Assembly (NCBI GenBank): GCA_964416155.1
Contig: CAYQCW010000001.1
Span: 170,943-234,942 of the forward strand
Length of the DNA stretch: 64,000 bases
Direction of reading: 5' to 3'
Origin: an uncultured Nitrososphaerota archaeon
Lineage (GTDB): Archaea; Thermoproteota; EX4484-205; JAAOZP01
Below are positions 15,996 through 40,688 of this stretch, piece by piece. Every line of letters begins with the position of its first letter. Within the stretch, counting starts at the first letter, position 1. The notes below the pieces were generated by a model, which did not search any database, was not told where the DNA came from, and was given only the letters and a program-made list of their open reading frames with translations. The position numbers were made by a program, and so were the translations under genes.

Positions 15996-16334
15996 TTACG
16001 GCAAAAAACATTTCCGGCAGGTATTTAAAAATTCGCTAACATGAACAAGTTAAATTACCAAGTTTATGTTAAAAAACTCGAGGGATAGGCACAGTTTTGC
16101 AATATTCTACTTCCTGGTTCTCTGGAAGCGGGTTATAGTCATCCTGAGTGGAAAGCGGAATCCCAGTCGACAGGGAAAGCCAACAGCTCTTTAAGCGGAA
16201 ATTAGCGCGGGCTATACCGAACTACAAGGGTAGTGGAAGATGAACCTCGCCCCCGTATCAGAAGAACGGTACGAACCTCTCTCCGTCGAAGCTAAGCGTC
16301 CCCGTTACAGTGCCATCTAACATGCGTAGAGGCA

Positions 16335-16843
16335 CTAGGGTGGAGAGCCCTCCGCCCCTGGCTTTCCTTCCCTGAACCTCCTCAGCAGAGTATCCTCCCT
16401 AAACGGCATTGCTCTGCTATCCTCTAGCATGGCCATGCCGACTAGGGTTCCGTCAGGCAGGAAGTTGACGTGTCTCGCCCCAACTATCTTCTCACCCCCG
16501 ATTCTTTCGATCAAAGTGTCTCCATTGAGCAACAACACTCTACCATCCTCCAGCTTTACGAGAAATGCTGGGTTTCCGTTTAGCAGCCTGAAGAGGAAAC
16601 TTCCCTCTAAAACTTTCATCCCATGGGCTTCATCTATAAGCTTGTCGCTGACGAAGGGAACTTGCCGGCCATCATCTAAGAAGACTCGCCTACCAAAATA
16701 TTGCCAAAGAAGACTCTGTAGGAAACCCGCGCAGCCTTAAACTCCTTCCCGCCAATCCTATCTATCAGGATATCGTCCCTGAACAAGAGTTCTCGCTCGA
16801 ACCCCTGAACCCAGAGCGCGCGCAAATTTATACCCTGTCGCAT
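16335..16843 (-). pseudogene. Internally duplicated small repeat-protein gene disrupted by a 29-bp tandem duplication (two ORFs of 56 and 94 aa in different frames)
   Basis: The upstream ORF (ATG at 16843, stop at 16676) and the 94-aa ORF (16335..16619) encode homologous repeats, DDILIDRIGGKEFKAARVSYRVF versus GDTLIERIGGEKIVGARHVNFLP. Removing one copy of the 29-bp unit bounded by AAGAAGACTC (16678-16687 and 16707-16716) fuses them in frame. Confidence 0.4.
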
Positions 16844-17244
16844 CCCACCTTCCGACGCAGTAGCCGTAATGCTTGCAGCACCACCGTAAGAAGCAGACTA
16901 TCTGTTTTCCATGTTCCCGGCGTACCCTAGGCTAACACGCAAACTAGTAGTATGCTCGCTACCAGCAAAGAAACTGCTATAATAATGCCGGGGATCATTA
17001 AACTAGAGTTCTTTAAATCTTTCACGTGTACCACCTCCGCTTATAGGGGGTAATGGGTCATATATTGCGGAGGCCGATATCGATATATTTCACATTCGAA
17101 AAAGAACAATAGAATGCTCCAAAAAGAGGTCAAAAAATCCAATTCATCCCCATCTGCAGAATTTGGTTAAAACCTTGCTCAAGAATTTTGCTCGCGATAA
17201 CGCTCCCATATGCCTTTTTCCATGGAGCATAAAATGGTGCCGCG

Positions 17245-18174
17245 CTAAGTTAGAACATTGTCAACGCTAAGCAAGCCTAGGTCGTCGACACTAACTCCTT
17301 CAGCAAGAACCCTGTATGCTCCGACGCATCTTTTAGCAACCTCCTTAACAACTGGTTTAGGCAGCTCCGGCGGCTCCCCCTCTCCAACGAAACCCATTCT
17401 CCTTAAGCATTCTCTGAGAAACTCTTTGTCCAGGCAATGCGACTCCTGCGGTTCTCCAACCCTGTAGTATTCGACTGCCCAGAGCCTTGCGGAGTCATGT
17501 GTAGGCGGCTCATCTATCTGAATCAACTCATCCCTGTAGAAGCCAAACTCTATTTTGAAGTCGGGTATTATTATTCCTGCTTTCCGAGCCTCAGCCTCGT
17601 AAAACTCGTAAAGCTTGAGAGCAGCCTCCTCCAGCGTGCGCCAGGTATCCGCGTCAATAAGCTTCATCTCTAACGCTTCAGCCCTGGTGATCTCCCTGTC
17701 GTGGCCCACGTCGGCCTTCGTAGTGGGTGTTAACACTGGTTCCGGAAGCTCCTCAGCCATCCTTAGTCCATCTGGAAACCTTAATCCGTACATTTCCCTC
17801 CTGCCCTCCCTGTAAGCCCTCCATAATGATCCGTAAAGGTATTTCCTAATAACCCATTCAATATTGACCCTCCGAGCCTTCCTCACTAGTATGCTCCTCT
17901 CGTCCACAACGTCTATAAGATGGTTTGGAAAAACCTTTCTGCTCCTCCTCATCCAGAACACAGTCAGCTTCTGCAAGTATTCCCCCTTCCTAGGTATTGG
18001 TGTGGGAAGCACGACGTCGAACACCGAAACCCTGTCAGTGTGATAGATTAGGAGTTCCTCCCCCAGGTCGTATATGTCCCTGACCTTCCCCCTTAACGGC
18101 TTCCCGATGTTCAGGTTAGAGTATTTGACGACGAGTGTTTCCCCGCCTGTTAAAGGATCCTCCGCCAGCCACAT
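17245..18174 (-). CDS. purC: Phosphoribosylaminoimidazole-succinocarboxamide synthase (PurC/SAICAR synthetase)
   Basis: Motifs GKVRDIY and LLIYHTDRVSVFD match PurC. The longer ORF (to 18366) has a non-PurC-like N-terminus, so the start was placed at MWLAEDP. Confidence 0.8.
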   Translation of the reverse strand: MWLAEDPLTGGETLVVKYSNLNIGKPLRGKVRDIYDLGEELLIYHTDRVSVFDVVLPTPIPRKGEYLQKLTVFWMRRSRKVFPNHLIDVVDERSILVRKARRVNIEWVIRKYLYGSLWRAYREGRREMYGLRFPDGLRMAEELPEPVLTPTTKADVGHDREITRAEALEMKLIDADTWRTLEEAALKLYEFYEAEARKAGIIIPDFKIEFGFYRDELIQIDEPPTHDSARLWAVEYYRVGEPQESHCLDKEFLRECLRRMGFVGEGEPPELPKPVVKEVAKRCVGAYRVLAEGVSVDDLGLLSVDNVLT

Positions 18175-18327
18175 CAACGCCTTTTTCACACGGGTGTTTA
18201 AAAACGTTTCCAACCCTAGGGGTTTAAAGCTTATCTTTACCCTCTGCAAAAGCATATTATGGGATGCTCTGTTCCTCCACCGCCACCTGGTCAAATATAC
18301 CTTTCTACGACTCCTGAAATACCTGGC

Positions 18328-18609
18328 ATGAGAATCGTTAAAAGTTTGGGAATAATCTTTGGGCAAACAGTCAGGACGAGGGGTGCTCTTGGAAGATTTG
18401 TAGCTGGGATAGAGGCGCTGGTCGGGGGTAAGTCGGAAGTATACCTCTCGGAAATCGAGAAGGCGAGGAATGAAGCCCTTGAGAACCTGGTGAGGAAAGC
18501 AGCCTCAATGGGTGCAAACGGTGTAGTTGGCGTAGATTTCGAAACGTCTGAAATCCTAGAGGGCTTCATAGTAATCACCGCCGTGGGAACTGCTGTAAAG
18601 GTGGAGTAG
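18328..18609 (+). CDS. YbjQ/UPF0145 (DUF74) family protein
   Basis: MRIVKSLGIIFGQTVRTRG..GANGVVGVDFE is typical of the YbjQ heavy-metal-binding-like fold. Confidence 0.6.
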   Translation: MRIVKSLGIIFGQTVRTRGALGRFVAGIEALVGGKSEVYLSEIEKARNEALENLVRKAASMGANGVVGVDFETSEILEGFIVITAVGTAVKVE

Positions 18610-18698
18610 GAAGACCCTCGGCGCGCTACACGTTTTATTCGTAATTATTGATGTTGGCCCAGGAAACTGTTAAATACTTCCCTCAAGCATGCTTATCC

Positions 18699-18932
18699 AT
18701 GGTTGTTAAAGCATACGTGTTCATAGTGACGAAGCCCGGCACATCCATCGAGGTTTCAAACGAAATTAAGAGGATCAGTGGTGTTTATTCGGCTGACCCT
18801 ATCTACGGCAGGTTCGATGTGGTGGCGACGGTGGAAGCCGAGAGCCCCGAGGAATTAACTAGGCTGCTCTACGAGGTTATTGAGAAGATTCCGAATATAG
18901 TTAGAACGGAAACCTCAATAGTTTTGCAGTGA
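18699..18932 (+). CDS. Stand-alone RAM (Lrp/AsnC ligand-binding) domain protein
   Basis: MVVKAYVFIVTKPGTSIEVSNEIKRISGV..DVVATVEAESPEEL has the shape of an Lrp/AsnC C-terminal domain without an HTH. Confidence 0.5.
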   Translation: MVVKAYVFIVTKPGTSIEVSNEIKRISGVYSADPIYGRFDVVATVEAESPEELTRLLYEVIEKIPNIVRTETSIVLQ

Positions 18933-18938
18933 CTTTAA

Positions 18939-19172
18939 ATGATCAGGGCCTTCATCCTGGTTAGAACCAAGCCGGGTACTTCTGAAGAAGTCGTAAGGGC
19001 AAGAAGGATCAAGGGTGTTAAACTGGCTAATTCCGTCCTAGGAAGGTATGATGCAGTGCTGGTGATAGAATCTAAGAGCCTGGAGGAACTAAGGAAAACT
19101 ATCTACGAGGTTCTGGAGAAGCTTGAGCACGTGGAGCACACGGAGACCCTGATATCTTTCTCTCCAGATTAA
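18939..19172 (+). CDS. Stand-alone RAM (Lrp/AsnC ligand-binding) domain protein, second copy
   Basis: MIRAFILVRTKPGTSEEVV..YDAVLVIESKSLEEL matches the same fold. It sits tandem to the previous ORF, 6 bp apart. Confidence 0.55.
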   Translation: MIRAFILVRTKPGTSEEVVRARRIKGVKLANSVLGRYDAVLVIESKSLEELRKTIYEVLEKLEHVEHTETLISFSPD

Positions 19173-19234
19173 CCGGCGGTCCTTCTCACCCCATGTTTTC
19201 ATCAAACCTGTTAGTGATTTTTTTAAATCAAAGC

Positions 19235-20380
19235 TTAGACGCGATACTCAAATTTACCATCTTTCGAAATAATGATTAGCGAGTTTCCCTCAGCAGATTT
19301 TTCACACCTGCCGATTACTTGGGCACCGACATGGAACTTTTCAGATATATCTATAACAGTATCCTCAAACTCTTTCTCGACAATTATCTCTAAACCTATT
19401 CCCATGTTGAAGCTTCGATACATGTTTACCAGAGTCTCCCGGCTTTCAGCCTGAATCAGCCTAAATATTGGATCTGGTTCAGGAAGATTATCCTTCACAT
19501 ACCTTATGTTCCTCCCTATTTTCAAACATTTCGTTAACCCTCCACCAGTATTATGAATTATGGCTTTAACCTCAACACTTTTAATGACCTCGAGTATTGT
19601 TTGCAGGTAGATCCTAGTCGGCGACAATAATGCTTCCCCGATGCTCATGTTAAGCTCATCTACGAAAGAATCTATTTTGAAGCGACCGTAATACCCTTTG
19701 GCTTCTGAGCCTATCTCAGGATACTTATCCAAGTATTCTCTCGCTAACAGGCAGTGTCTCGCAAGCGTTATCCCGTTGCACATTATTCCACTGTTCTCCT
19801 TCTCCTCATATACGGATCTTCCCCCGCTTCTCAACCCGACTATAACATCCCCGGGCAAAATGTTTCTGCCAGTTATCACTTTGGAGAACTCGACTCTAGC
19901 CATCACTGTTCCTGAAACGTCGAATGTTCTGACAATATCAGGCAGGTCAGCCGTCTCGCCTCCGCTGAAAAGAATAGGAACACCGTTCCCCCTGAGCATT
20001 GAAAAAACTCTGGAGAAGCCTTTAGCAAGGCTTTTGAGGAGCTCCTGTTTTGGGACTTTAAAAGGGTTTACTGCAACATAGTCTGAAAAAGCCACTGGCG
20101 ACCCTCCTACGCAAGCCGCGTCGTCAACATTCATGGCGACAACGTCGTCGGCCAATGTTTCGAAAAACTTCTTCTCACCAGTCTCCTTATAGTAGAGGTA
20201 GGAGACAACTGGCTTTGTTCCAGCACCATCGGTATGAAGAATTATCCCCCAGGCTGGGTTTAAAGAATCCTTAACTACAGGAGAGAAGGCTTCGGGGAAA
20301 ACGTCGTCCGTAATCTTTTTCAAAAACTCCACTCCTGTCTTGCTCACGTCTATGCCGAGCTCCTCATATCTTGAAGACAT
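19235..20380 (-). CDS. purM: Phosphoribosylformylglycinamidine cyclo-ligase (PurM/AIR synthetase)
   Basis: The PurM N-domain motif DVVAMNVDDAACVGG is present and the protein is 381 aa. Confidence 0.85.
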   Translation of the reverse strand: MSSRYEELGIDVSKTGVEFLKKITDDVFPEAFSPVVKDSLNPAWGIILHTDGAGTKPVVSYLYYKETGEKKFFETLADDVVAMNVDDAACVGGSPVAFSDYVAVNPFKVPKQELLKSLAKGFSRVFSMLRGNGVPILFSGGETADLPDIVRTFDVSGTVMARVEFSKVITGRNILPGDVIVGLRSGGRSVYEEKENSGIMCNGITLARHCLLAREYLDKYPEIGSEAKGYYGRFKIDSFVDELNMSIGEALLSPTRIYLQTILEVIKSVEVKAIIHNTGGGLTKCLKIGRNIRYVKDNLPEPDPIFRLIQAESRETLVNMYRSFNMGIGLEIIVEKEFEDTVIDISEKFHVGAQVIGRCEKSAEGNSLIIISKDGKFEYRV

Positions 20381-21606: not shown

Positions 21607-22347
21607 TTAAGCTACTTTTTTAAGGCCCTCCATAAACCTGCAGGCTTCCTCATAGGTCTGGGGTGTTCCGATGTCAAACCAGTATCCCCGGAAAACGTAG
21701 CCGTAGACAGGCTCGTTCCCGCATAGCCAAGATACGAAGTGTCCGGGACTATCCCTGTGCCCGCCCTCTTCAACGTATCTCTTGATTTTTACGAGCGACC
21801 TCCATGGAAACATGTAGATAGCGGTGGCTATAATGGTTGAACTCGGGTTTACAGGCTTCTCGACGAAATCCACTATTCTACTATCTTCAGCAAGCTTGAC
21901 GCAGGAATACATTTTAACAAGCTCAATGTTCCCAACATCGTAAAGCGCTACAACCGGCGCATTCTTACTGCGGTAGAACTCGAGGAATTCCGTCAAATCA
22001 AGCGAGAAAAGGTTGTCGCCTGCTATAACTAGGTATTCGTCCTCACCGATATTGTCAACAAGCATCGCCAGCGATAATATTGTCCCAAGCTTCTCCTCCT
22101 CCCGCGTACTCCCCTCGACCTGGAGCCTCGTGTTAACATAGCCTCTGGATCCAAGCCATTCTCTAAAATCCTTTTCAAACTTCCTGTTCACGGTGATGAT
22201 GACCTCGCTCGGGTTTAAGATACTTATTTTCTCCATGGTGTAGTCTATTATCGGCCTGTCGCAAACCTTAACCAGCGGCTTCGCCATGTGCACTCCAAGA
22301 TTTTGAAGACGCTTCGCAAAGCCTCCAGCAGGAACTATTACCCTCAA
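21607..22347 (-). CDS. Sugar-phosphate nucleotidyltransferase (NTP-transferase family)
   Basis: MRVIVPAGGFAKRL matches the G-x-G-x-R nucleotide-binding motif. The protein is 246 aa. Confidence 0.7.
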   Translation of the reverse strand: MRVIVPAGGFAKRLQNLGVHMAKPLVKVCDRPIIDYTMEKISILNPSEVIITVNRKFEKDFREWLGSRGYVNTRLQVEGSTREEEKLGTILSLAMLVDNIGEDEYLVIAGDNLFSLDLTEFLEFYRSKNAPVVALYDVGNIELVKMYSCVKLAEDSRIVDFVEKPVNPSSTIIATAIYMFPWRSLVKIKRYVEEGGHRDSPGHFVSWLCGNEPVYGYVFRGYWFDIGTPQTYEEACRFMEGLKKVA

Positions 22348-22474
22348 GACTCCTAAGCGTTATTATTGAAGAGGTTGAAATAAACTTTCCCCCAGAATAT
22401 TAGCGTAAGAGTGTTGTGAAAACATTTATATTTTAAGAGTCTTCTCCTGTGAACACGGATGTGGAAAACCAAGC

Positions 22475-23902
22475 ATGAGTGAGAAAAATACTCTTGTATT
22501 CACAATAGACGCTCAAATAACTCCTTCAGATTACACGGATCTAGTTGACTTCATATATCGGAACTATGTGGCTCCTAATTTGAAGCATTTTGCAAACGTC
22601 GTCAGAAGCACCTCTGAAACAGGGTTTTTCCTCTTCTTTACTGCCGTTGACCCGGATAGGAAATGGTATATCGACGTTCAGATAAGCATTGGAAAACCAA
22701 TCAATGTTAGAATGGTTTTAAGCAACAGCGAGGTTCCAGGATCAGCCGTAAACTGGTTGAGAAGCAGCCTAGTGGCTGCGGTCAGGTTTTTCGAAGAACA
22801 GCTTAGAAAAACAACCGTCTACTTCACCTGGGTCGAGGGCGAGGAAATAATACCTGAAAGGGTTCTTGAAGCCCGTAAGAATTTTGTCTACCGGATGTTT
22901 TCAGAAAGCATGCTTCTCCTTTTCATCCTATTCACCTCGCTCAGCATCATTCTATTCCTAATCTTGGGGTCTTATGCTCCAATAACACTCGTATTAATGC
23001 AGTTCATCCTAATTCTTTTCTCAGACAGGATTATTGGGAGAATGGGAGATTGGCATATCACTGAGAAAAACCCTCTAATACATGTTTTCCAGTATAGTAT
23101 TCCAGTTTCAGAATACAAATCCTTTCTAAACAAGTATGGTGGAGAAATTTTCTCGAAGATTAAGAAAGAGATTTACATCAAGACCCTAGCCGTCAGGAAG
23201 CCAATAGACTATGAAATATGCGCAGAAGTGTTGTCCCATTATGGGTTTGAGTGTAACCCTGAAAAAGCCTCAGCGAAGATCGTGAACTTGTATGAGATTG
23301 TAAAACAGGCTGCGGAGAAGTTTGAGCTTCCAGTGCCCAAGATCGTTGTCTCTAACACGACTCTGCCTAATGCTGCAGCCTCTGGGCCTTATCCGAGCCG
23401 TGGGGTAATCCTAGTGACCACAGGGCTGCTTGTCCAGCTTGACGAAAAGGAGGTTCTAAGCGTTATTGGACATGAGTTCAGCCATCTTAAAGGGAGGGAT
23501 CCGTTGTTTCTCTTTCTCCTGACCTCAATAGAGTATCTTCTCAGGTTTTACGTTTTCTGGCCGCTGCTATACTTCCTAGGATACTTCTATCTTATAATTG
23601 CTCTTGGAGCCGTCTACTTCATAGCTAAGTTTTTCGAGTCCAAGGCTGACTTAGAGTCTGCCATCAGAATAGGTGAGCCGCAGAACCTTGCAAACGCGTT
23701 GAGGAAAATAGGTTTTCGCAGGCTTCAGCTAGAGATGCGACGAGGATACGCTATTCAAGAATGGTTAGGATGGGATCCGCACCCACCTCTCTATTTCAGA
23801 ATATCTAGGCTGGAGAGCCTTAGGGACCCCAGTAGGATAAGGCATCCCTTGATAAGATCTATAAAAGACAATATACTTGGTTTCTTGGAAATAATTGGAT
23901 GA
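22475..23902 (+). CDS. Membrane metalloprotease, M48/HtpX-like HExxH, with a roughly 130-aa N-terminal domain of unknown family
   Basis: Hydrophobic helices flank VIGHEFSHLKGRD, the HExxH zinc motif in the HtpX-like arrangement. No family was recognised for the N-terminal soluble domain. Confidence 0.55.
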   Translation: MSEKNTLVFTIDAQITPSDYTDLVDFIYRNYVAPNLKHFANVVRSTSETGFFLFFTAVDPDRKWYIDVQISIGKPINVRMVLSNSEVPGSAVNWLRSSLVAAVRFFEEQLRKTTVYFTWVEGEEIIPERVLEARKNFVYRMFSESMLLLFILFTSLSIILFLILGSYAPITLVLMQFILILFSDRIIGRMGDWHITEKNPLIHVFQYSIPVSEYKSFLNKYGGEIFSKIKKEIYIKTLAVRKPIDYEICAEVLSHYGFECNPEKASAKIVNLYEIVKQAAEKFELPVPKIVVSNTTLPNAAASGPYPSRGVILVTTGLLVQLDEKEVLSVIGHEFSHLKGRDPLFLFLLTSIEYLLRFYVFWPLLYFLGYFYLIIALGAVYFIAKFFESKADLESAIRIGEPQNLANALRKIGFRRLQLEMRRGYAIQEWLGWDPHPPLYFRISRLESLRDPSRIRHPLIRSIKDNILGFLEIIG

Positions 23903-24483
23903 AAACCCGGAAGATTAGTTTAAAAATTATTAAAGCCACCCTCCATTCTTATTCGGAGTTGAAGTTCAAGGGAATAATCTTAGCAATGCTTGTCTTAGTT
24001 TCTGTTATCATCCTCTCTATTTCTACGAGATATACGAGCATTCCTCAGGCAAATTATACTAGCGGGAAAATTTTAAGCGTTCCTTTCGTCAAGCAGGGAC
24101 CCGACCTTTGCTCCGAGGCCTCCGCCAGCATGGTTCTTCTATATTACAGTCTAAACTTCTCGCAAGAAGAAATAAACGCGATGGGATTCGATAAGTTTGA
24201 GAACATGCTTACCTTCTTAGACAAGCATATTTACTGCTCATATAAATCGCTTTCAGTAGAAGAATTGAGAGAAGAAATTCGAAAAGGCAATCCCGTAATT
24301 ATCAGGTTAAGAATTGGGATTAGCCTCCATACGGTAGTGGCTGTTGGATATGAAAATGATTGGATAATTGTGCACGACCCTGCGTCAGGACCCTTCGTAC
24401 TGCTAAGGGTGGATGAATCGTTCATTTCTTCTTGGGCAGCGACTAACTACGCTTCAATAGTTTCACGTGGCCGTAGGCCTTGA
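23899..24483 (+). CDS. Membrane-anchored C39-like (papain-fold) cysteine peptidase domain protein
   Basis: After an N-terminal TM helix come QGPDLCSEASASMVLLYY (Cys motif) and LHTVVAVGYENDWIIVHDP (His motif), as in the Peptidase_C39_2 family. The start overlaps the upstream stop as ATGA. Confidence 0.45.
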   Translation: MKTRKISLKIIKATLHSYSELKFKGIILAMLVLVSVIILSISTRYTSIPQANYTSGKILSVPFVKQGPDLCSEASASMVLLYYSLNFSQEEINAMGFDKFENMLTFLDKHIYCSYKSLSVEELREEIRKGNPVIIRLRIGISLHTVVAVGYENDWIIVHDPASGPFVLLRVDESFISSWAATNYASIVSRGRRP

Positions 24484-24561
24484 AACATTATTTTCTCTCC
24501 TGATAAAGTATTTTTCCAGCCGCAGAAATTCATAAATCTAAGCATCCAGGAGGAAGGCCGA

Positions 24562-25479
24562 ATGAAACCGGATCCATTATGCATCCCATGCACCGTAAAT
24601 GCCGCCCTAGACATAGCCCTTAAAGCGACTAATGACCAAGACACTATCAGGGAGATACTTTTAGAGAGCTTAAGATGGATTCCGAAGGCCTTCGAGGAGG
24701 ATGCTTCACCGAACGTCCTTCACTCGCAAGTATGCAGGATTACTCGAAAAATAGCCGGAGTGAGAGACCCGTTTAAGCATGTGAAGACTGTTTCAAATGA
24801 AATTGCCTTAAAGGTTTATCCAAGCCTATGTGAAATGCTTGAATCAATCAGGAATGATGTCGAAGTACTTAGGTTTTCCCTCAAAGCATCCATAATTGGA
24901 AATATGATGGATTTTGAGGTGAAAAATTATCGCTTCAATCTTGAAAGCCTAGAATCACGGTTTAAAGACTATTTGAAGGAGCCTTTGGTGATCGACGACG
25001 TGGATAAGCTGTGTGATGCAATCAGCGGCGGGAAGAAGATCCTTTATCTAGCGGATAATGCGGGGGAAATAGTTTTCGATAAGCTTGTCGCGAAATGTCT
25101 GAAAGAGAGATGGGGGTGCAGTGTTACGATGGTTGTTAAAGACGGGCCTGTTTTGAACGATGCGACTCTGGAAGATGCGGAGTACGTCAGGCTTGGCGAT
25201 GCATGTGACAAAATCGTTACTACGGGGGACGACACTATAGGAGTTGTTTTTGACAGGGTTTCGGAGGAGTTTAAGCAAGCCCTGAAGGAATCAGACATAG
25301 TGATATCTAAAGGACAAGGAAACCTCGAGTCTCTCACTGGGCTTGAAAAGAATATTGGCAAGCCTGTTTGCTATGTTCTGAGAGTCAAATGTGAAGTAGT
25401 CGGCAGAAACCTCGATGTCCCAAAGGATTCTAACGTGGTTAAGCTTATAAGGTTCCACAAGTTTCAAAAACTTTATTAG
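24562..25479 (+). CDS. DUF89/ARMT1-like (damage-control phosphatase family) protein
   Basis: Motifs ILYLADNAGEIVFD (DNxGE) and VISKGQGN (KGxxN) match this family. There is an N-terminal C-x-x-C, and the protein is 305 aa. Confidence 0.55.
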   Translation: MKPDPLCIPCTVNAALDIALKATNDQDTIREILLESLRWIPKAFEEDASPNVLHSQVCRITRKIAGVRDPFKHVKTVSNEIALKVYPSLCEMLESIRNDVEVLRFSLKASIIGNMMDFEVKNYRFNLESLESRFKDYLKEPLVIDDVDKLCDAISGGKKILYLADNAGEIVFDKLVAKCLKERWGCSVTMVVKDGPVLNDATLEDAEYVRLGDACDKIVTTGDDTIGVVFDRVSEEFKQALKESDIVISKGQGNLESLTGLEKNIGKPVCYVLRVKCEVVGRNLDVPKDSNVVKLIRFHKFQKLY

Positions 25480-25502
25480 GTTTTACTCTTAAATTACCAT
25501 CT

Positions 25503-26363
25503 ATGAAGAAGGGGATAAATCTTTGGAGCATTGAATGGCCCAGCATTCTGAGGGAACTCGACAATAAGAAGGTTGCCAGGAAGATTAAGGAGATCGGTTA
25601 TGATGGGGTTGAGCTTGTCTTTGACGACAGTAGTTTCGACCCGACTAGGAAGACGGAGGAGGAGATACGGAGAACAGCTGAGGATTTCAAGTCGGAGAGT
25701 CTTGAAATACCCAGCGTGGCGACAGGCGTCTTCTGGAAGTACAATCTCGGCTCAAACGATGAAAAAACTAGGAGCAAAGGCGTCGAGTACGGCAAGGCTG
25801 GTGTTAAAATGGCCAGCATCGTAGGAGCCTCATCGATCCTTGTTGTTCCGGGTGTTGCCTCTCCCGAGACACCTTATGAAGAGCTTTATGTTAATGCTCT
25901 AAATTCGGTGAAAAAACTCGCAGAGTTCGCAGAGGATTATGACGTGACGATAGCTGTTGAAAACGTCTGGAACAAGTTCCTCTACTCTCCCATGGAGTTT
26001 AAGAAATTCATTACGGATGTAGGAATGAGGAATGTTAAAGTATATCTTGACGTTGCCAACCTTATGGCGATATCTCATCCTGAAAACTGGATACATAGCC
26101 TGGGAAACATGGTGTCAAACGTTCACGCCAAGGATTTCGATACTAATATTGGAAATATTAATGGGTTTAGGAACGTGCTTAAAGGAAACGTGGACTGGAG
26201 GAAGATTATCAAGCTGCTTAAAGCAGTAGGATACAACGGTTATCTGACTGTAGAGTGTCCCCCAAGTTTTAATCCCTTGTTGAAGTCTCCCACTGTTCAA
26301 GATATTATGAGGAATGCTGAGGAAAACTGTAGGGCGCTTAAGGAAATCACTAAAGGATTTTGA
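25503..26363 (+). CDS. Sugar phosphate isomerase/epimerase (xylose-isomerase-like TIM barrel)
   Basis: The AP-endonuclease-2/xylose-isomerase-like barrel pattern is present (GYDGVEL.., HAKD, E-rich metal ligands). The protein is 286 aa. Confidence 0.6.
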   Translation: MKKGINLWSIEWPSILRELDNKKVARKIKEIGYDGVELVFDDSSFDPTRKTEEEIRRTAEDFKSESLEIPSVATGVFWKYNLGSNDEKTRSKGVEYGKAGVKMASIVGASSILVVPGVASPETPYEELYVNALNSVKKLAEFAEDYDVTIAVENVWNKFLYSPMEFKKFITDVGMRNVKVYLDVANLMAISHPENWIHSLGNMVSNVHAKDFDTNIGNINGFRNVLKGNVDWRKIIKLLKAVGYNGYLTVECPPSFNPLLKSPTVQDIMRNAEENCRALKEITKGF

Positions 26364-26366
26364 GTC

Positions 26367-26858
26367 TTGAAAAGAATACAGATAAGGAGGAAGGAGGCAG
26401 CTAGGTTTATCGAAGATGCTAAAAACCAAAAAATCTCTTTTAAACTAGACAAGCCGGAGTCTGCGGAGATAGTTGAGCTGGAAGATGCTAAAATACTTCT
26501 TTTAAACCGAACCCCCGCCCTAATAATTTTTCCAGACGGAAGGATCATTCCACATCTTCAAGGCCTTGGAAGAATAACGGTCTGTCCGATAGTGGTTGTT
26601 GACAAGGGTGCTGTAGAATACGTGGTTAAGGGGGCTGACGTGATGATGCCGGGAGTAGTTAAACACAGTAGTTTCAGCAAAGGGGACACTGTTGCAGTTG
26701 TTTCAGAAGACTATGTTGCAATAGCAGTAGGAGTGGCTCTTCAAGACTCTGGGGAAATCGTTAAAGAGGTAAAAGGAAAGATCGTTAAAAATCTGCATAA
26801 GCCCAACGACAAGTTTTTCGTAGGGGTCTCTGGCTTAACCCAGTCCAACAGTGTTTAG
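26367..26858 (+). CDS. PUA-domain protein (pre-PUA plus PUA)
   Basis: The C-terminal segment GAVEYVVKGADVMMPGV matches the PUA fold. It lies 3 bp after the preceding gene. Confidence 0.55.
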   Translation: MKRIQIRRKEAARFIEDAKNQKISFKLDKPESAEIVELEDAKILLLNRTPALIIFPDGRIIPHLQGLGRITVCPIVVVDKGAVEYVVKGADVMMPGVVKHSSFSKGDTVAVVSEDYVAIAVGVALQDSGEIVKEVKGKIVKNLHKPNDKFFVGVSGLTQSNSV

Positions 26859-30907: not shown

Positions 30908-31280
30908 CTAGTTCTATTTGAACTAGATGAGGTTCTACTGCTTGAACCGTCATAATTAGGACTCACGTTTATCAAATCTTTATCACCGGCTTTCTCAACC
31001 CGGAGGTTGACTGTTTTCAAATCATGCTGCGCGCGCTAGCCCGTTCGCAACGAGGAATGCCTTAACCTGTTGAATATAATCCGGTTTCACAGTAATGTTT
31101 ACGGGGAGTGTTGAAACATACGCTGCCAAGGTTGATCTTGAAACCTCCGTCCAGTCATCTACGTTCCCAACCTGGTAGACACCTATCCTACTGGTTTGAG
31201 GATTATAAAACACAACCATGGTGACGTAGGCCACTTGAGCGCTTATCGAGTAAAACGGTAGTATAAATAGCGGTGTGTTA

Positions 31281-31601
31281 TTAACAAGCCGACCATAAGG
31301 CTGCCCTCAACCCATGACCCCGCGCGTCTGGTGTAGAGTCAATATTTGTTGAACAGCAGGATGGTGAAGAATACTTTCCATTATCGCGAAGCCTCGGAAC
31401 CCTGTTTTGAAACAGGATGAACTCCTTACTGCCAGGAGTGAAAACATAAGCGCCGACAATGTTCACGGAATCTCCGGGGTTCTGCTGATAGTTCTCAACT
31501 ATGCACAGGGCCACGTACCGGTTTTCCAAGGAAACGTATCTTATGTCGAAAACGCTTTGCGAATATATTCTTCCACTGGAGTCTCTAGGATAGTCCAGCA
31601 T
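31281..31601 (-). CDS. Hypothetical protein (possibly a remnant)
   Basis: 106-aa ORF in a low-density stretch. No motif recognised. Confidence 0.2.
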   Translation of the reverse strand: MLDYPRDSSGRIYSQSVFDIRYVSLENRYVALCIVENYQQNPGDSVNIVGAYVFTPGSKEFILFQNRVPRLRDNGKYSSPSCCSTNIDSTPDARGHGLRAALWSAC

Positions 31602-31928
31602 ACCTGTGCTCCTATACTAGGAGTCGTAATCCGAGCTTTAAATCCTGTAAGTATTGTAAACGTCTATTATGCTTCACATAATGTTTTTAATGTATCTTAC
31701 CTGCGGCTTAAGCCAAGACGGTATTGGCCTAACCCAAGAAGGATATAGGGATTTAAGCGCGTTAACAACATAGTTATCACTGTTCAAGGACTCATATGTA
31801 GCCTTGAATACTGACGTCTGAAACGTTTACCGGATTATGGAGAAAAGCCTTCTCAAGCAGCCTCCGTTTTCCACGCCATACTTCTCCGTGGCAGCGTAGC
31901 CAGTGTAAACAGGCTTCTCAACAAAGGT

Positions 31929-32222
31929 TTAGAAAGCAAGGTAAAGATTCCCGTCGGGGTCTACAACCGGATATGGTGCTGGCACACCCGTCCTAGGGTC
32001 GGTTTCAACGACTAGAAGCGGCGCTTTTATCGCTGAAATCCTTTCGCAAGCGCCTCTAGTGATCAAAGCGTTTAAAGCATCCCCGTAGCCTCCTGAAGCT
32101 ATGTCGAGCCTTCCTTTAAGAAGGAAGTAGGCCGCGCGAACCCATCCTGAGAAAACATAGTCAGGCGGGCCGGTGTATTTCACAGTTCCAGCTTCCCTCC
32201 ATTTGCCCGTGTCAACGAACAC
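31929..32222 (-). CDS. Hypothetical protein
   Basis: 97-aa ORF with no family recognised. Confidence 0.25.
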   Translation of the reverse strand: MFVDTGKWREAGTVKYTGPPDYVFSGWVRAAYFLLKGRLDIASGGYGDALNALITRGACERISAIKAPLLVVETDPRTGVPAPYPVVDPDGNLYLAF

Positions 32223-32318
32223 TATTTCCCTTTCTCTGAAAAGCCCCCCCTAGACCATAGTATACGGGAGGCGCGCGCTACCCAGCAAGCTTTTAAGCTT
32301 ATCTTAGGGGAACTGTTT

Positions 32319-35841: not shown

Positions 35842-36857
35842 GATTTACTCCTCCTAACCAAGATTATTGTTTCAAGCACGATCACCAGCAGGGCTGCAAG
35901 CGTTGTCAGAAGGTAAATGTTAAGCCCGCTTGAAACAGTACCCCGCTCAGATAAGAGTGCACCGTAAACCTGCCCAGCATTATAGTACATTACTGAATCG
36001 TAATCCTTCACACCGCTTGCCGAAACTACTGAAACGTAAGCTATGTTGCAACCCGTATCCTTAGAGACTTCTCGCAGAGCATTCTGGATCCCACTCATCA
36101 ATAAAGCAGTGTCGGAGACAACTATGCAAGCATACTCTCCAGACTTAAGCCCGTCGTAAACCCTGCTCAACGATCCTGGGCTTATAGCCTCGCCTTCACC
36201 AACCAGCACAGCACCTGCTTTCAAACCCATGGCTTCAACAACGTATTGCTCTTCATAGAAACCTATGACAACCCTCCTCCCAGACGAACCATGCTTCTCC
36301 GAAAGCCTTTCAAGAAAAATCTTTAGAGACGACACTTTCTCCTCGAAAAGCCTGTAGTTAAACCAGTATTCCTCTGAATGCTCAGGCCTCAAGGTTGAAA
36401 GCCTGTCTCTCAGAGCTCTCGCAATCAGGACAGCATTATCGGGCAGAAGCCAGAAGCCGTGAGTATTCCTCCCTCCCTCCAGCTCAAGAATAGTGCCATT
36501 TCTCTCAACCAGCTCAAGCAGGTTTAGCGATATTGAACCGGTTTCAACACCTCTTTCCTCTGCAACCCGTTTCACAAGGTCCTCCTCCCACTCCATGTGG
36601 CCGGTTATAACGATCAGGTCAGCATCGGAAGCGTTTCTCACAACACTGGGAGTAAGGGTGAAGCCATGTGGCTCAGCATCACCGGGAACAATCGAATAGA
36701 CTTCCCCAGTACTGCCTGTTACAGAGGAGACAATCGGTCTCAGAATATCCAGCGTGACAACTATCTTTGTCTTCCCATCCAGCCTAGCATAAGTAGGCAT
36801 GGGTAAAAATGTTAGGAGTAACGTGAGGAGCATGATTCCAACCGTGTTCCTCAGCAA
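35838..36857 (-). CDS. Metal-binding periplasmic/surface substrate-binding protein (TroA/ZnuA-like), N-terminal anchor
   Basis: There is an N-terminal hydrophobic segment, the protein is 339 aa, and it is operonic with the permease and ATPase. Confidence 0.6.
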   Translation of the reverse strand: MLRNTVGIMLLTLLLTFLPMPTYARLDGKTKIVVTLDILRPIVSSVTGSTGEVYSIVPGDAEPHGFTLTPSVVRNASDADLIVITGHMEWEEDLVKRVAEERGVETGSISLNLLELVERNGTILELEGGRNTHGFWLLPDNAVLIARALRDRLSTLRPEHSEEYWFNYRLFEEKVSSLKIFLERLSEKHGSSGRRVVIGFYEEQYVVEAMGLKAGAVLVGEGEAISPGSLSRVYDGLKSGEYACIVVSDTALLMSGIQNALREVSKDTGCNIAYVSVVSASGVKDYDSVMYYNAGQVYGALLSERGTVSSGLNIYLLTTLAALLVIVLETIILVRRSKS

Positions 36858-37300
36858 CCGGACCTGCCTCCTGGAATATGGTTTCTATGAGGACAGGTCT
36901 TAGGATGGCCGAGAGCACTACACATGGAGTCAACAATCTTATCAGGAAGATATTGTTCAACCATGCTCGCGAATTCGCAAGCATCCTCCAGACTGATTGA
37001 AAGAACCCTGTACACGTATGTTTCGAAAACCCTGTGGTTCCTGATTATCCTGTTGACCTCCTCCAATCCTTTTTTCGAAAGGCTCGCTCCCCTCCAAAGA
37101 TATCTTTTAAGCATGCCCTTTTCCTCTAGTCTTCCAAGATATTCGCTTGCAGTCGCACATGAAACCCCCATCGCATCCGCTACTTCAAGGCTTCCAACCA
37201 TATCTCTTCCTGAAAGCAGTTTGAAAACCATCTTAAGATACTCAATCTCTTTCCCAGTCAGGCTCTTCGAAGCATGTTTTGAAGCTCCCGATTCAGGCAT
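36851..37300 (-). CDS. DtxR/MntR-family metal-dependent transcriptional regulator
   Basis: An HTH plus LGHPKTCPHRNHIP (the DtxR metal-site/dimerisation signature LG.P..CPHG..IP) identify the family. It is the first gene of the metal-uptake operon. Confidence 0.75.
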   Translation of the reverse strand: MPESGASKHASKSLTGKEIEYLKMVFKLLSGRDMVGSLEVADAMGVSCATASEYLGRLEEKGMLKRYLWRGASLSKKGLEEVNRIIRNHRVFETYVYRVLSISLEDACEFASMVEQYLPDKIVDSMCSALGHPKTCPHRNHIPGGRSGC

Positions 37301-37463
37301 GCGTTAATTTTAAGGAAGCTCCTAAATTTAAGTTTTCAAGGCAGGCTCCCATTAAGGGGCCTTATTCCACTGTTGATTAATCCCGTTACAGTGGATACGG
37401 GTGTATAAATAGGGTTTTTCAACTATTGTTTTTATTATGTTGCTATATTTGTTTAAAGCATGG

Positions 37464-37484
37464 TTGTGTCGTTTTGCGACACAA
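37464..37484. promoter_or_regulatory. Perfect 8-5-8 palindrome TTGTGTCG-TTTTG-CGACACAA (operator-like site)
   Basis: Read directly from the sequence. It lies in the AT-rich island, upstream of the small ORFs and about 165 bp upstream of the mntR-like start. Confidence 0.3.
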
Positions 37485-37611
37485 TCCTTTAATATCTCTA
37501 CGAATTATTGTGAGATAGGTTTGAAGGAGCTCAAACCGGTTCCGATTACATTTTCCTCCAACCATGTTCTTATTTGCCTTACGTTGTCTCCTTCTTTTCG
37601 GAGAATGAGAC

Positions 37612-37878
37612 TTGGTAAGCGTGTCTGAAGATTGGGCAAAGAAAATACTTGTTTCTATCGATAAAACGACATATAAACTTGTCGGAGTACCTGATTGGTC
37701 AAGCCATCGGGGTACTAGGATTACTATCGAGCTCCATGTGGTGGAGGAGAACAAGGATGAGGAGAGAGCACTTAAAGACAGTAAAGTTTTATACAGCGAC
37801 GAAATTAAAGAAGGCCGATTTATTACCGGAGAATTCTTGATGAGTGACGTATGGAAATCTACGGAGAACACTTCATGA
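37612..37878 (+). CDS. Hypothetical small protein in AT-rich island (TTG start)
   Basis: This 88-aa ORF has a stop that overlaps the next ATG as ATGA. Confidence 0.25.
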   Translation: MVSVSEDWAKKILVSIDKTTYKLVGVPDWSSHRGTRITIELHVVEENKDEERALKDSKVLYSDEIKEGRFITGEFLMSDVWKSTENTS

Positions 37879-38058
37879 AAATATTTGAAGAGCAGAAGGC
37901 GATGCTCGAAAAGTCTTTAAAGGTTAAGATTTTTGACCATAAAATTAGCATTTTTTAATCACGATGCTGAAAACTATGAGATTAGACTTGAATTTGACGG
38001 TCAAGAGATTGAAATAAGAAGGGTTTTCAGCGTTCCTTTTCCAGAGAAGACCTCATAA
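37875..38058 (+). pseudogene. Small ORF interrupted by a +1 frameshift at a T6 homopolymer (37951-37956)
   Basis: MKIFEEQKAMLEKSLKVKIFDHKISIF stops at the T-run. The next frame continues NHDAENYEIRLEFDGQEIEIRRVFSVPFPEKTS. Confidence 0.25.
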
Positions 38059-38143
38059 GTATACTCTGGAAATTTCTCGGAATGAAAAAACAGGAGAGAT
38101 ATGCTGGAGAGATAAGGCTGAGGAGGCTTATGTAAACACGTAT

Positions 38144-38350
38144 ATGCTGCTGAAGAAACACTTTGAAACACTTGAACACTTCACATATCCCAATTCTTCA
38201 GATATTGGAGGTAAGTATACTCTGAGATACAAGGGGCATCTATTTCACATAATTGTTAATCACTATTCTATGTCTATTCACTCGGATGCCCCCGTGAGCT
38301 ATTCGATGAATTTAACACTCATCAAGGATGATCAGCGCGCAAATCGATGA
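38144..38350 (+). CDS. Hypothetical small protein in AT-rich island
   Basis: 68-aa ORF in an AT-rich context. Confidence 0.2.
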   Translation: MLLKKHFETLEHFTYPNSSDIGGKYTLRYKGHLFHIIVNHYSMSIHSDAPVSYSMNLTLIKDDQRANR

Positions 38351-38537
38351 TGCGTGTACCAGCATGTTTTTGCCGTCTATTGACGTAAGAAAACATGTAA
38401 AGAGCCGATCAGGAACAATTACATCGGCTAGAGACAGATGTGCTAATATAATCCGGATTTTACGCTAGGCCTTGATTTAGATGAAAAGAACAAAAAAACA
38501 CTCGAAAAGAGGATGGGACGATGAAAATCATTCCTTT

Positions 38538-40688
38538 TCAGACGAGAAAAAACTCCTCTTTCTCGCCGAACTTCCTGTATTTCTTAAGCATATCCTCTTT
38601 CAAACTGGGTTTAACGGTTTGAAGAGCTTTTTCAAAATCCTCCTTAGTCACCTTGTCAGCATCCCTTCTCAAAGCGTTTAAGCCAGCCTCCCTGCAGAGC
38701 GCCTCCAGGTCAGCCCCAGAGTAGCCCTCAGTCCTCTTTGCAACCTCCTCCAGGCTAACGCCCTCCAAGGGCATTCTCCTCGTATGTATCTTAAGTATCT
38801 GGAGCCTTGAAGCCTCATCAGGCGGGGGAACATACAGCATTACTTCAAACCTTCCCGGCCTCATTATCGCAGGGTCGAGAAGTTCAGGCCTGTTAGTAGC
38901 GCCTATTATGATAATCCTCTCAATAGGGGTTAGCCCATCCATCTCTGTTAGAAGCTGGCTTACAACCCTCTCGGTTACGCCGCTGTCAGCCATGCTCATA
39001 CCCCTCCTCGGAGCGATCGCGTCAACCTCATCCAGGAAGATTATTGAGGGTGAGGCGAGCCTAGCTTTCCTAAACACTTCTCTTATTGCTTTCTCAGACT
39101 CTCCAACCCATTTTGAGAAGATTTCTGGACCCTTAATGCTTATGAAGTTGGCCTCGCTCTCAGTCGCGACTGCTCTAGCGAGAAGAGTCTTCCCGCATCC
39201 CGGTGGGCCGTAGAGAAGTATCGCTTTAGGAGGCGTTATACCTAGTTTTTCAAACTTCTCCGGGGTCTTTATCGGGAGCTCAACGGTCTCCCTGAGCCTC
39301 CTCTTAATCTCCTCGAGCCCCCCGACGTCACTCCACCTGACCGTGGGAACCTCAACGTATACTTCTCTCATAGCGGAGGGAGTTATTTCTTTAAACGCGT
39401 TCATGAAGTCCTCAGCCTTAACAACCATTTTCTCTAATACGGATTGAGGAATCCTCTCATCCAGCTTTATCTCAGGCAAGTATCTTCTCAAAGCCTTCAT
39501 CGCCGCCTCCCTGCATAGTGCAGCCAGGTCTGCACCAGTGTAGCCGTGCGTTATTTCAGACAGCTTCTTTAAGTCCACATCCTTGTCAAGCGGCATAGAC
39601 CTAGTGTGTATCTGAAGTATTTCAAGCCTGCCCTGCTTATCGGGCACTCCTATCTCTATCTCTCTGTCGAACCTCCCAGGCCTGCGTAAAGCAGGGTCAA
39701 TCATGTTCGGAACATTCGTTGCGCCTATGACGATCACGTCACCCCTAGCCTTCAAACCATCCATGAGCGCTAGAAGCTGAGCCACTACTCTTCTCTCAAC
39801 CTCGCCGCCAACCTCCTCCCTCTTCGGCGCTATAGCGTCAATCTCGTCTATGAAGATTATGCTCGGAGCCTTCTCCTGAGCCTCTTGGAAAACCCTTCTA
39901 AGCCTTTCCTCAGACTCGCCGTAAAACTTGCTCATTATCTCAGGCCCGTTTATAGAAAGGAAGTTGGCGTCAGACTCGTTTGCAACAGCCTTAGCAAGGA
40001 GCGTTTTACCAGTGCCAGGCGGGCCGTGGAGTAGCACGCCCTTAGGCGGCTCTATGCCCAGCCTCTGGAAAAGCTCAGGGTGTCTCAAGGGAAGCTCAAC
40101 CATCTCCCTTATTCGCTGAATCTCCTCGTGTAAACCGCCAATATCCTCGTAAGTAACCCTTGGAATAGCCAGCTTCTCAGCAGCCTCTTCGCTCACTATC
40201 TGCATCCTAGTGTCTGGAGTAACCTTCACGAAGCCTCTCGGCTTAACCCGGACCACGGTGAGGCCGAGTGCTTGGCCGCCGAAGACCGGTACTGCAACTA
40301 TATCGCCCTCGGTGAGGGGAGTGTCTATGAGCTTATCCCTAGCATAGTCTAGGAAATCCTCGTCCACGCTGGATATTCGCGTGCCCATTGGTGCTAACAC
40401 GACTTCGCTAGCGTTCTCAACCTTATCCACCTTCCTGATCTTCACGTAGTCCCCTATCGCAACCCCGGCGCTCCTCCTTATCAGGCCGTCCATCCTCACT
40501 ATCTTACGATCCTCATCCTCAGCGTAGCCGGGCCAGACTACTGCTGAAGCAGACTTCCTGCCAAGTATTTCGACAACGTCTCCAGTCTCAGCCTTAAGCT
40601 GAGCCATCTCCTTCCTCCCTATTCTAACTATCCTCCTGCCGACATCCCTCGGGCGTGCTTCAGCAACAACTAGTTGAACCTCACTCAT
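38538..40688 (-). CDS. cdc48: CDC48/VCP-like AAA+ ATPase (two AAA domains)
   Basis: An N-domain is followed by two Walker A/B modules ([24 protein letters not shown]). The protein is 716 aa. Confidence 0.95.

Follow-up and report, generated by a model that had tools for sequence, protein, structure and literature searches.

Broken remnant of a probable orphan gene in the variable mntR-cdc48 slot of an uncultured hot-spring archaeon

Overall organization of the locus

The stretch of DNA analyzed here (to be referred to as the window) comprises 64,000 nucleotides (nt) from an uncultured Nitrososphaerota archaeon. An AT-rich island (positions 37301-38537) is located between the genes for an mntR-like repressor and Cdc48, and contains a series of short open reading frames (ORFs) that we ascribe to a single broken gene (the orphan gene). 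A preliminary description of the island had proposed decaying, horizontally acquired DNA, with a toxin/antitoxin cassette, a mobile-element remnant and a regulatory small-protein cassette as possibilities.

Related contigs are used for comparison. The Cdc48 protein of the window is 98% identical to that of contig L010 (Candidatus Brockarchaeota metagenome-assembled genome (MAG) DRTY-6.bins.80, JAFNIX010000005.1) and 92% identical to that of L011 (a Thermoproteota MAG recovered from a hot spring in China, JAWCNV010000001.1). Contigs L090 and L091 (the sister strains) have the same mntR-island-cdc48 arrangement as the window, with flanks about 99% identical to it. Contig L005 (983 nt) is from another metagenome and encodes the protein P0002. 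Brockarchaeota have been described from hot-spring and hydrothermal sediments (PMC8065059), and one sister strain (SRR8369165) is from Bakreshwar hot spring, India (PMC9241837). The features of the locus are as follows.

36851-37300, minus strand: mntR-like metal-dependent repressor, left core flank (Pfam Fe_dep_repr_C, 9e-20; Fe_dep_repress, 1.5e-8).
37301-37337, minus strand: likely mntR promoter/operator stretch, TTTAAATTTAGG-like and near-palindromic; the window, L010, L011 and L090 can be aligned over it, immediately upstream of the mntR start.
37338-37440, no strand assigned: AT-rich spacer found in the window strain only and containing two small hairpins; no alignment with L005, L010 or L011.
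37441-37611, plus strand: putative promoter (a role assigned from position) and 5' leader of the orphan gene; conserved with L005 despite a different left neighbor there.
37612-37854, plus strand: orphan piece 1, 81 codons, TTG start (ATG in L005); 73% identical to P0002.
37852-37856, plus strand: frameshift 1, one G lost (TGG-GAA to TGGAA); GGG in L005, GG in the window, L090 and L091.
37855-37955, plus strand: orphan piece 2, 34 codons, frame differing from that of piece 1; in L005 the two form one ORF (P0002, 134 amino acids (aa)).
37951-37956, plus strand: frameshift 2, a T6 run with one T gained, specific to the window strain; TTTTT in L090 and L091, TTCTT in L005.
37957-38058, plus strand: orphan piece 3, 33 codons and a TAA stop; aligns with L005.
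38018-38350, plus strand: orphan piece 4, 111 codons open in a third frame; fused in frame to pieces 2-3 in L090.
38335-38340, plus strand: GCGCGC in the 3' end of piece 4, close to the right boundary of the variable segment; a motif of the same type as the junction filler described below.
38351-38537, minus strand: cdc48 3' flank, with a T-rich terminator-like run at 38483-38499 (plus strand); about 75% identical to the region downstream of cdc48 in L010, absent from L011.
38538-40688, minus strand: Cdc48/VCP-type AAA+ ATPase, right core flank (Pfam CDC48_N, CDC48_2 and two AAA domains).

On the left side, mntR is the first gene of a ZnuABC-type metal-uptake operon (ZnuA, ABC_tran and ABC-3 genes). 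The near-palindromic AT-rich element upstream of it (CTTAAATTTAGG in the window; 12175-12218 in L011) is likely to be its promoter and the repressor's own operator. The L011 version is a perfect 17-nt palindrome, CATCCTAATTTAGGATG, and overlaps the start codon. BLAST homology to L010 and to L090/L091 ends at 37331-37337. One of the hairpins in the adjoining spacer pairs CCACTGT (37367-37373) with ACAGTGG (37388-37394), and the entire spacer falls within a 208-nt segment (37338-37545) that is missing from both sister strains.

Upstream of the orphan gene, a TATA-like sequence, CCTTTAATATCT, is found at 37486-37497. The leader also contains a short hydrophobic upstream ORF, MFLFALRCLLLFGE (37564-37608), which is conserved in L005 (468-527, MFLFAVFFFFEG...). 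In the window this ORF is in frame with the main ORF, with a TGA between them, and it could represent a lost signal peptide or a leader peptide. On the right side, the independent contigs L001, L002 and L003 all end at the same base in cdc48 (window position about 39165, 1865 nt from the mntR start), which could be due to the internal similarity of the two AAA domains or to strain variation.

Composition of the island

The GC content of positions 37301-38537 is 0.385, compared to a window mean of 0.481 (standard deviation of 1237-nt stretches 0.027; z = -3.6). None of the 6030 non-overlapping 1237-nt stretches is as GC-poor, the runner-up being at 0.414 (position 23851), and this sliding-window check bears out the AT-rich island of the preliminary description. 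All sub-parts of the island are low (5' part 0.376, ORF remnants 0.387, cdc48 3' flank 0.390), while the adjoining genes mntR and cdc48 have values of 0.462 and 0.517, respectively. The orphan gene itself is also GC-poor. Its GC content at third codon positions (GC3) is 0.41, compared to 0.545 +/- 0.049 in host genes, and GC is low at every codon position. The second-lowest composition of the window is a broad, moderately GC-poor region (0.40-0.44) at 22000-26500, which contains several full-length genes.

Pieces of a single gene

The short ORFs of the preliminary description are all present, in three frames:

37612-37878: 88 codons.
From the ATG at 37875: 27 codons.
After the T-run, ending at 38058: about 33 codons.
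38082-38135: 17 codons.
38144-38350: 68 codons, contained in piece 4.

The four-base ATGA overlap between the first two is likewise real (37875-37878) and lies inside piece 2. The sole non-identical homologue of the 88-aa ORF among 5.8 billion clustered proteins is P0002, which has 73% identity. In the DNA alignment, L005 runs unbroken from the 88-aa ORF into the next ORF (pieces 1 and 2). An exhaustive HMMER search with the repaired 245-aa sequence finds P0003 (123 aa, in L090) and P0005 (52 aa, in L091), and P0003 reads pieces 2, 3 and 4 as one ORF. Because L005 joins pieces 1 and 2 and L090 joins pieces 2-4, the short ORFs are fragments of one gene. Judged from these sequences, this gene is on the plus strand (37612-38350) and has at least 148 codons, or about 245 if the last ORF belongs to it.

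The frames of pieces 1-4 follow the order 1, 0, 1, 2 (start coordinate modulo 3). The gene is broken by the loss of 1 nt at 37854/55, by the gain of 1 nt in the T6 run, and probably by a third shift. The frameshift at the T6 run that the preliminary description had noticed is genuine, as three relatives have five bases there. L005 has its own 1-nt loss, in an A-run (A6) within the piece 3 region. Piece 4, which carries an internal 13-nt repeat (TAAGTATACTCTG, at 38056 and 38212), is probably the C-terminal part of the same gene. Four independent public assemblies are 100% identical over the island, and the frame breaks are therefore not errors of one data set. The piece 1 region is called as an 88-aa gene in four assemblies.

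A toxin/antitoxin or regulatory small-protein cassette with overlapping genes was considered for this region, as small, adjacent ORFs with an ATGA overlap have the usual look of translationally coupled pairs. The likeness to type II toxin/antitoxin cassettes is in appearance only. The fragments are fused into single ORFs in L005 (pieces 1 and 2) and L090 (pieces 2-4), which speaks against two toxin/antitoxin genes and against small regulatory proteins alike, and they are nowhere conserved as two genes. No toxin or antitoxin match was found in Pfam, NCBIfam or PADLOC, nor any match in PHROGs. In L005 the ATGA is part of an uninterrupted series of codons (F-M-Q), and it is thus an accident of the frameshift. 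We regard a cassette of either kind as extremely improbable.

The relatives of the orphan protein, among the 5.8 billion clustered proteins and 1.84 billion representatives, consist of the strain variants and L005. Neither the fragments nor the repaired 245-aa protein match any entry in Pfam, PHROGs, NCBIfam or PADLOC above sub-threshold noise, and the best hit of a sequence search against the PDB has an E value of 0.5. An AlphaFold2 model based on a three-sequence alignment is unusable (mean predicted local distance difference test (pLDDT) score 38, predicted template modeling (pTM) score 0.26). The homology search suggested in the preliminary description has yielded relatives (L005, L090 and L091) but no family, and no fold either, as no fold search was made with the unusable model. 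No further relatives were found in viral contigs, JGI metagenome contigs, phage records or plasmid records. The left neighbor ORF of L005 is also without a homologue, and exact-protein look-ups for more strain variants (S25e and the 94-aa ORF) return the window's own strain only.

One other HMMER hit, P0004 (a 347-aa repeat protein, E = 2e-14), was rejected as a chance match inflated by six near-identical repeats. It aligns over about 29 residues per stretch with 38% overall identity, and it also "hits" eight unrelated Pfam families, with no significant stretch in any of these.

Past and recent selection

In the repaired frame, the window and L005 can be compared over 140 codons. The ratio of nonsynonymous to synonymous substitution rates (dN/dS) is 0.14 (0.13, 0.15 and 0.21 for pieces 1, 2 and 3), and third positions account for 58 of the 94 differences. 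Values of 1.2-1.8 are obtained for the other two sense frames. The low ratio over these codons indicates that the orphan gene was formerly a genuine one.

The longest ORF in the island, however, is located on the minus strand (142 aa, 37443-37871), and it could be the true gene with the plus-strand ORFs as its shadow. Over piece 1, this antisense frame shares the wobble positions of the sense frame, is free of stops in both sequences, and has a dN/dS of 0.138. Since it scores equally low, dN/dS cannot choose the strand for piece 1. On the other hand, it has a codon score of -0.24 (-0.12 for the piece 1 part), as is usual for the antisense frames of host genes (mean -0.15) and outside the values of the host genes themselves (0.26 +/- 0.06). 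Pieces 1, 2 and 3 have scores of +0.11, +0.32 and +0.37, compared to -0.12 to -0.24 for the antisense frame. The minus-strand product would be Ser/Leu-rich and of low complexity, and it is reported by no gene caller. In L005 the ORF has just 80 aa and a different end, with 13-nt and 5-nt gaps over the C-terminal part. Moreover, the constraint extends into pieces 2-3, where the antisense frame has stops. The sense strand is favored by the codon score, these antisense stops, the continuity of the ORFs in L005 and L090, and the TATA-like box and leader upstream, and a minus-strand gene appears highly improbable to us.

The plus-strand gene has changed differently in recent times. Relative to L090, 12 changes in the coding remnant are nonsynonymous and 2 are synonymous; relative to L091, the numbers are 15 and 2. 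The divergence of the island is 0.011-0.025 per site, compared to proportions of synonymous (pS) and nonsynonymous (pN) differences of 0.019-0.020 and 0.004-0.005 in the flanking genes (L090, L091). The remnant evolves at about the neutral rate, and we infer therefore that it is now a pseudogene that has lost its function. The evidence for this status comprises past purifying selection, disabling lesions, and relaxed selection after inactivation, the last from small counts.

The lesions can be placed in order. The loss of the G at frameshift 1 is common to the window, L090 and L091, and it is therefore the oldest lesion, older than the split of the strains. L090 and L091 have both lost the 208-nt segment (37338-37545), together with the promoter, between TTTTC microhomologies, as well as 5 nt at the start codon. 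Mid-gene deletions cover 112 nt in L090 (bridged by GCGCGCGCTA) and 156 nt in L091 (bridged by GCCGCGAGCGCGCGCT). The frameshifts and deletions support the decay that the preliminary description had proposed.

Some function might nevertheless persist, if the 88-aa N-terminal fragment or a piece 2-3 product is made, or if the homopolymer runs act as on/off switches. All assemblies have a gene call for the 88-aa ORF, and three of the four 1-nt frameshift lesions are located in homopolymer runs (G2/G3, T5/T6, and A6 in L005). A +1 ribosomal shift at AUU-UUU-UAA could give the piece 2-3 product, with the Phe tRNA re-pairing one base on and the stop codon in the A site. Bacterial prfB has a known +1 shift site (CUU-UGA-C), and the T6 run has the layout of such sites, with a re-pairable P-site codon (UUU in U6) followed by the in-frame stop UAA. 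Unlike the prfB site, however, the T6 run is recent and specific to one strain, the sisters having T5, and no stimulatory element or conservation is seen. The 1-nt loss upstream already splits piece 1 from piece 2, and frameshift 1 has no canonical slippery heptamer. Runs of 5-6 bases are short for phase variation. In addition, the sister strains are without the promoter and start region, and recent substitutions are overwhelmingly nonsynonymous in every piece. A partly functional gene is thus unlikely.

Hairpins and the possibility of a non-coding function

Several hairpins are found in the island. The hairpin AGCCGAT(N13)ATCGGCT of the preliminary description exists, one base from where it had been placed, at 38403-38429 in the cdc48 3' flank, next to another at 38363-38397. 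It keeps six of its seven pairs in L010 if G-U is allowed on the cdc48 strand. In the leader of the orphan gene, a hairpin at 37518-37537 is kept in L005 through a wobble-pair change that works on the plus strand only. These observations, and the 150-190 nt or so adjoining cdc48 that are common with L010, could be explained by a mainly non-coding functional segment, such as a regulatory RNA, a long cdc48 3' untranslated region or a long leader of the mntR operon.

However, the fold z-scores are ordinary across the island, from -0.4 to -2.0 (spacer, -1.0 on the plus and -2.05 on the minus strand; cdc48 3' flank, -1.8 and -0.4, respectively). By our own estimate, chance alone yields about one 7-bp stem with a loop of 15 nt or less per 1.2 kb, so that the hairpins are at the level of chance. 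No Rfam family matches the window at its gathering score, and with E values up to 10 over the island there are three matches, well below their gathering scores. L011 is without the whole segment, the sister strains delete parts of it, and the third-position pattern of substitutions records a coding history. A mainly non-coding role is therefore very unlikely.

A variable slot between mntR and cdc48

The order of genes around the island differs among the relatives. In L011, cdc48 is followed by 67 nt, mntR, and then the same operon, so that mntR and cdc48 are adjacent in a related genome, as the synteny comparison proposed in the preliminary description asked. In L010, about 150 nt after cdc48 are common with the window, followed by a 7.3-kb block and then the mntR operon. 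The segment specific to the window extends from about 37338 to 38390, with BLAST homology to L010 resuming at 38391 and weak similarity reaching to about 38350. With 67 nt in L011 and a different, 7.3-kb insert in L010 at the same junction, the site is a variable hotspot. In L005, the orphan gene and its leader have a different left neighbor, and the contig has a GC content of 37%.

The L010 block (12300-19630) has a GC content of 0.44, compared to 0.49 in the rest of that locus. It encodes a 67-aa C2H2 zinc-finger protein, a 337-aa zinc-ribbon protein, a 94-aa major facilitator superfamily (MFS) fragment, an MgtA-like P-type ATPase split into 120 and 728 aa, and a second P-type ATPase of 823 aa.

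The cdc48/mntR junction resembles flexible islets at a fixed hotspot. Three related genomes have three contents there, 67 nt, the 1.06-kb orphan gene and the 7.3-kb cation-ATPase block, all of them GC-poorer than their surroundings. The island has the atypical composition of an islet and is absent from the same site in close relatives. Unlike such islets, the edges are without a tRNA, integrase, recombinase or direct repeats. A tRNA scan of the whole window finds none, and no integrase or transposase is present among the genes scanned within about 10 kb, in agreement with the preliminary description. The repeat search gave short, chance-level repeats apart from the 13-nt internal one, with no significant flanking repeats. 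The island has no viral or plasmid match, and no donor can be identified. As for an insertion sequence (IS) or miniature inverted-repeat transposable element (MITE), the island is single-copy in the window and 1.3 Mb of related loci, and its inverted repeats are short and imperfect. A mobile-element remnant, as had been proposed, is possible at this clearly variable hotspot, though an integrase, transposase, terminal repeat and tRNA are all missing.

Acquisition from an AT-richer source is suggested by the low GC of all three codon positions, by the lack of the gene in the nearest outgroup, and by the 37% GC and other neighbor of L005. The earlier view of decaying, horizontally acquired DNA agrees with the absence from L011, the replacement in L010, the GC3 of 0.41, the frameshifts and the neutral-looking substitutions.

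Alternating GC at deletion junctions

No fewer than five junctions at which this lineage has deleted or replaced DNA contain GCGCGCGC-TA filler (verified at 31029 and 32271 of the window and in L090, L091 and L096). The motif is alternating GC, usually GCGCGC(GC) followed by TA. It is absent from the undeleted homologous sequence and is therefore filler. The sites of the motif are as follows.

Window: 16816-16823.
Window: 18621-18628.
Window: 31029-31038.
Window: 32271-32280.
Window: 38335-38340.
L090: 2867-2876.
L091: 4391-4407.
L096: 881-893.
L010: 15369-15376.

Three copies of GCGCGCGC are found in the window (16816, 31029 and 32271), compared to 0.19 expected, and none of 100 shuffles reached three. 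All three are in gene-poor gaps. Among alternating-GC runs of at least 6 nt, 6 of 10 fall in non-coding DNA, which makes up 12% of the window (P = 5e-4). The GCGCGC at 38335, at the end of piece 4, is a candidate junction only, by likeness of motif.

L096, a strain-variant contig from elsewhere in the genome, was examined as a test. Its similarity to the window begins only at 17148. The 884 nt at its start (GC 0.38) show no relationship to the window, and the junction reads GCCGCGCGCGCTA. The gene-poor gap 15996-17244 of the window is thereby replaced in this strain by unrelated 38% GC DNA. In the window, the gap contains paralogous minus-strand ORF fragments of 94 aa (16335-16619) and 55 aa (16676-16843), both with the motif ..L/IIE/DRIGGE/K.., and the shorter one begins at a GCGCGCGC site. 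These fragments look like a further decayed repeat-protein gene.

A second pseudogene is located at 30908-32318 on the minus strand, as fragments of 70, 106 and 97 aa split by frameshifts. Its parent is a membrane-associated protein of 941 aa, still intact in L011 (17883-20708) and without a match in Pfam or NCBIfam. Of the first 450 codons or so, the window has kept only the first four, and the interior lacks about 113 nt. The two GCGCGCGC copies in this pseudogene bridge the loss of about 1.3 kb near the N-terminus and the internal loss of about 113 nt.

It is possible, though doubtful, that a sequence-specific process, by which this lineage loses or swaps DNA, leaves (GCCGCG..)GCGCGCGC + TA filler behind, with the island as one example. 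Such filler might be the footprint of an unrecognized cut-and-paste element with palindromic GC ends, or the product of a break repair that synthesizes alternating GC. Nothing on this GC motif was found in the literature.

Discussion

With the anatomy, synteny, lesions and selection pattern observed at this locus, we consider it highly probable that the island is the broken remnant of a single orphan protein-coding gene, probably acquired, in a variable mntR/cdc48 slot of a hot-spring archaeon related to Candidatus Brockarchaeota. The gene, with its own putative promoter and leader (about 37441-37611), sits between the core genes mntR and cdc48, and it was under purifying selection through most of its history. 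The 1-nt loss at 37854/55 would then have inactivated it in this lineage, with neutral drift since. Later, a T was gained in the T-run of the window strain, and deletions in the sister strains removed the promoter, the region of the start codon and 112-156 nt of mid-gene sequence. These lesions account for the short ORFs, the ATGA overlap and the changes of frame as by-products.

A few observations weigh against this account. As no intact copy is found anywhere, the ancestral frame, especially the join between pieces 3 and 4 and the true C-terminus, is reconstructed. Piece 4 has a codon score of -0.09, and it is covered by near-identical strains only, with no distant homologue. The antisense frame over piece 1 matches the sense frame in dN/dS, and the counts of recent substitutions are small (14-17 changes). 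The horizontal origin rests on composition and patchy distribution, and the gene could conceivably have been lost from L011 and replaced in L010.

Prokaryotic ORFans and pseudogenes are often short, AT-rich compared to the host, confined to a narrow lineage, located between core genes, and broken by homopolymer frameshifts and deletions. The orphan gene shares the small size, the AT-richness, the narrow lineage, the position between core genes, and the homopolymer frameshifts and deletions. Unlike AT-rich ORFans, it has a record of purifying selection, and because of its dN/dS of 0.14 it was a real gene rather than a spurious ORF. It also differs in that no virus or plasmid link was found and in that its host is an uncultured archaeon known from metagenomes only.

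The series of lesions is the normal course of pseudogene decay, and the explanation of this locus is an ordinary one. We advise against annotating the short ORFs as small proteins or a toxin/antitoxin pair. The locus provides a clear and dated case of gene death from an uncultured phylum of archaea, with the shared frameshift first, followed by strain-specific deletions and the slip in the T-run, and it marks the cdc48/mntR junction as a slot with different cargo in related genomes. If the GC filler holds up across the whole genome, it would represent a new archaeal signature of DNA rearrangement, and could help to find the enzyme or element behind it.

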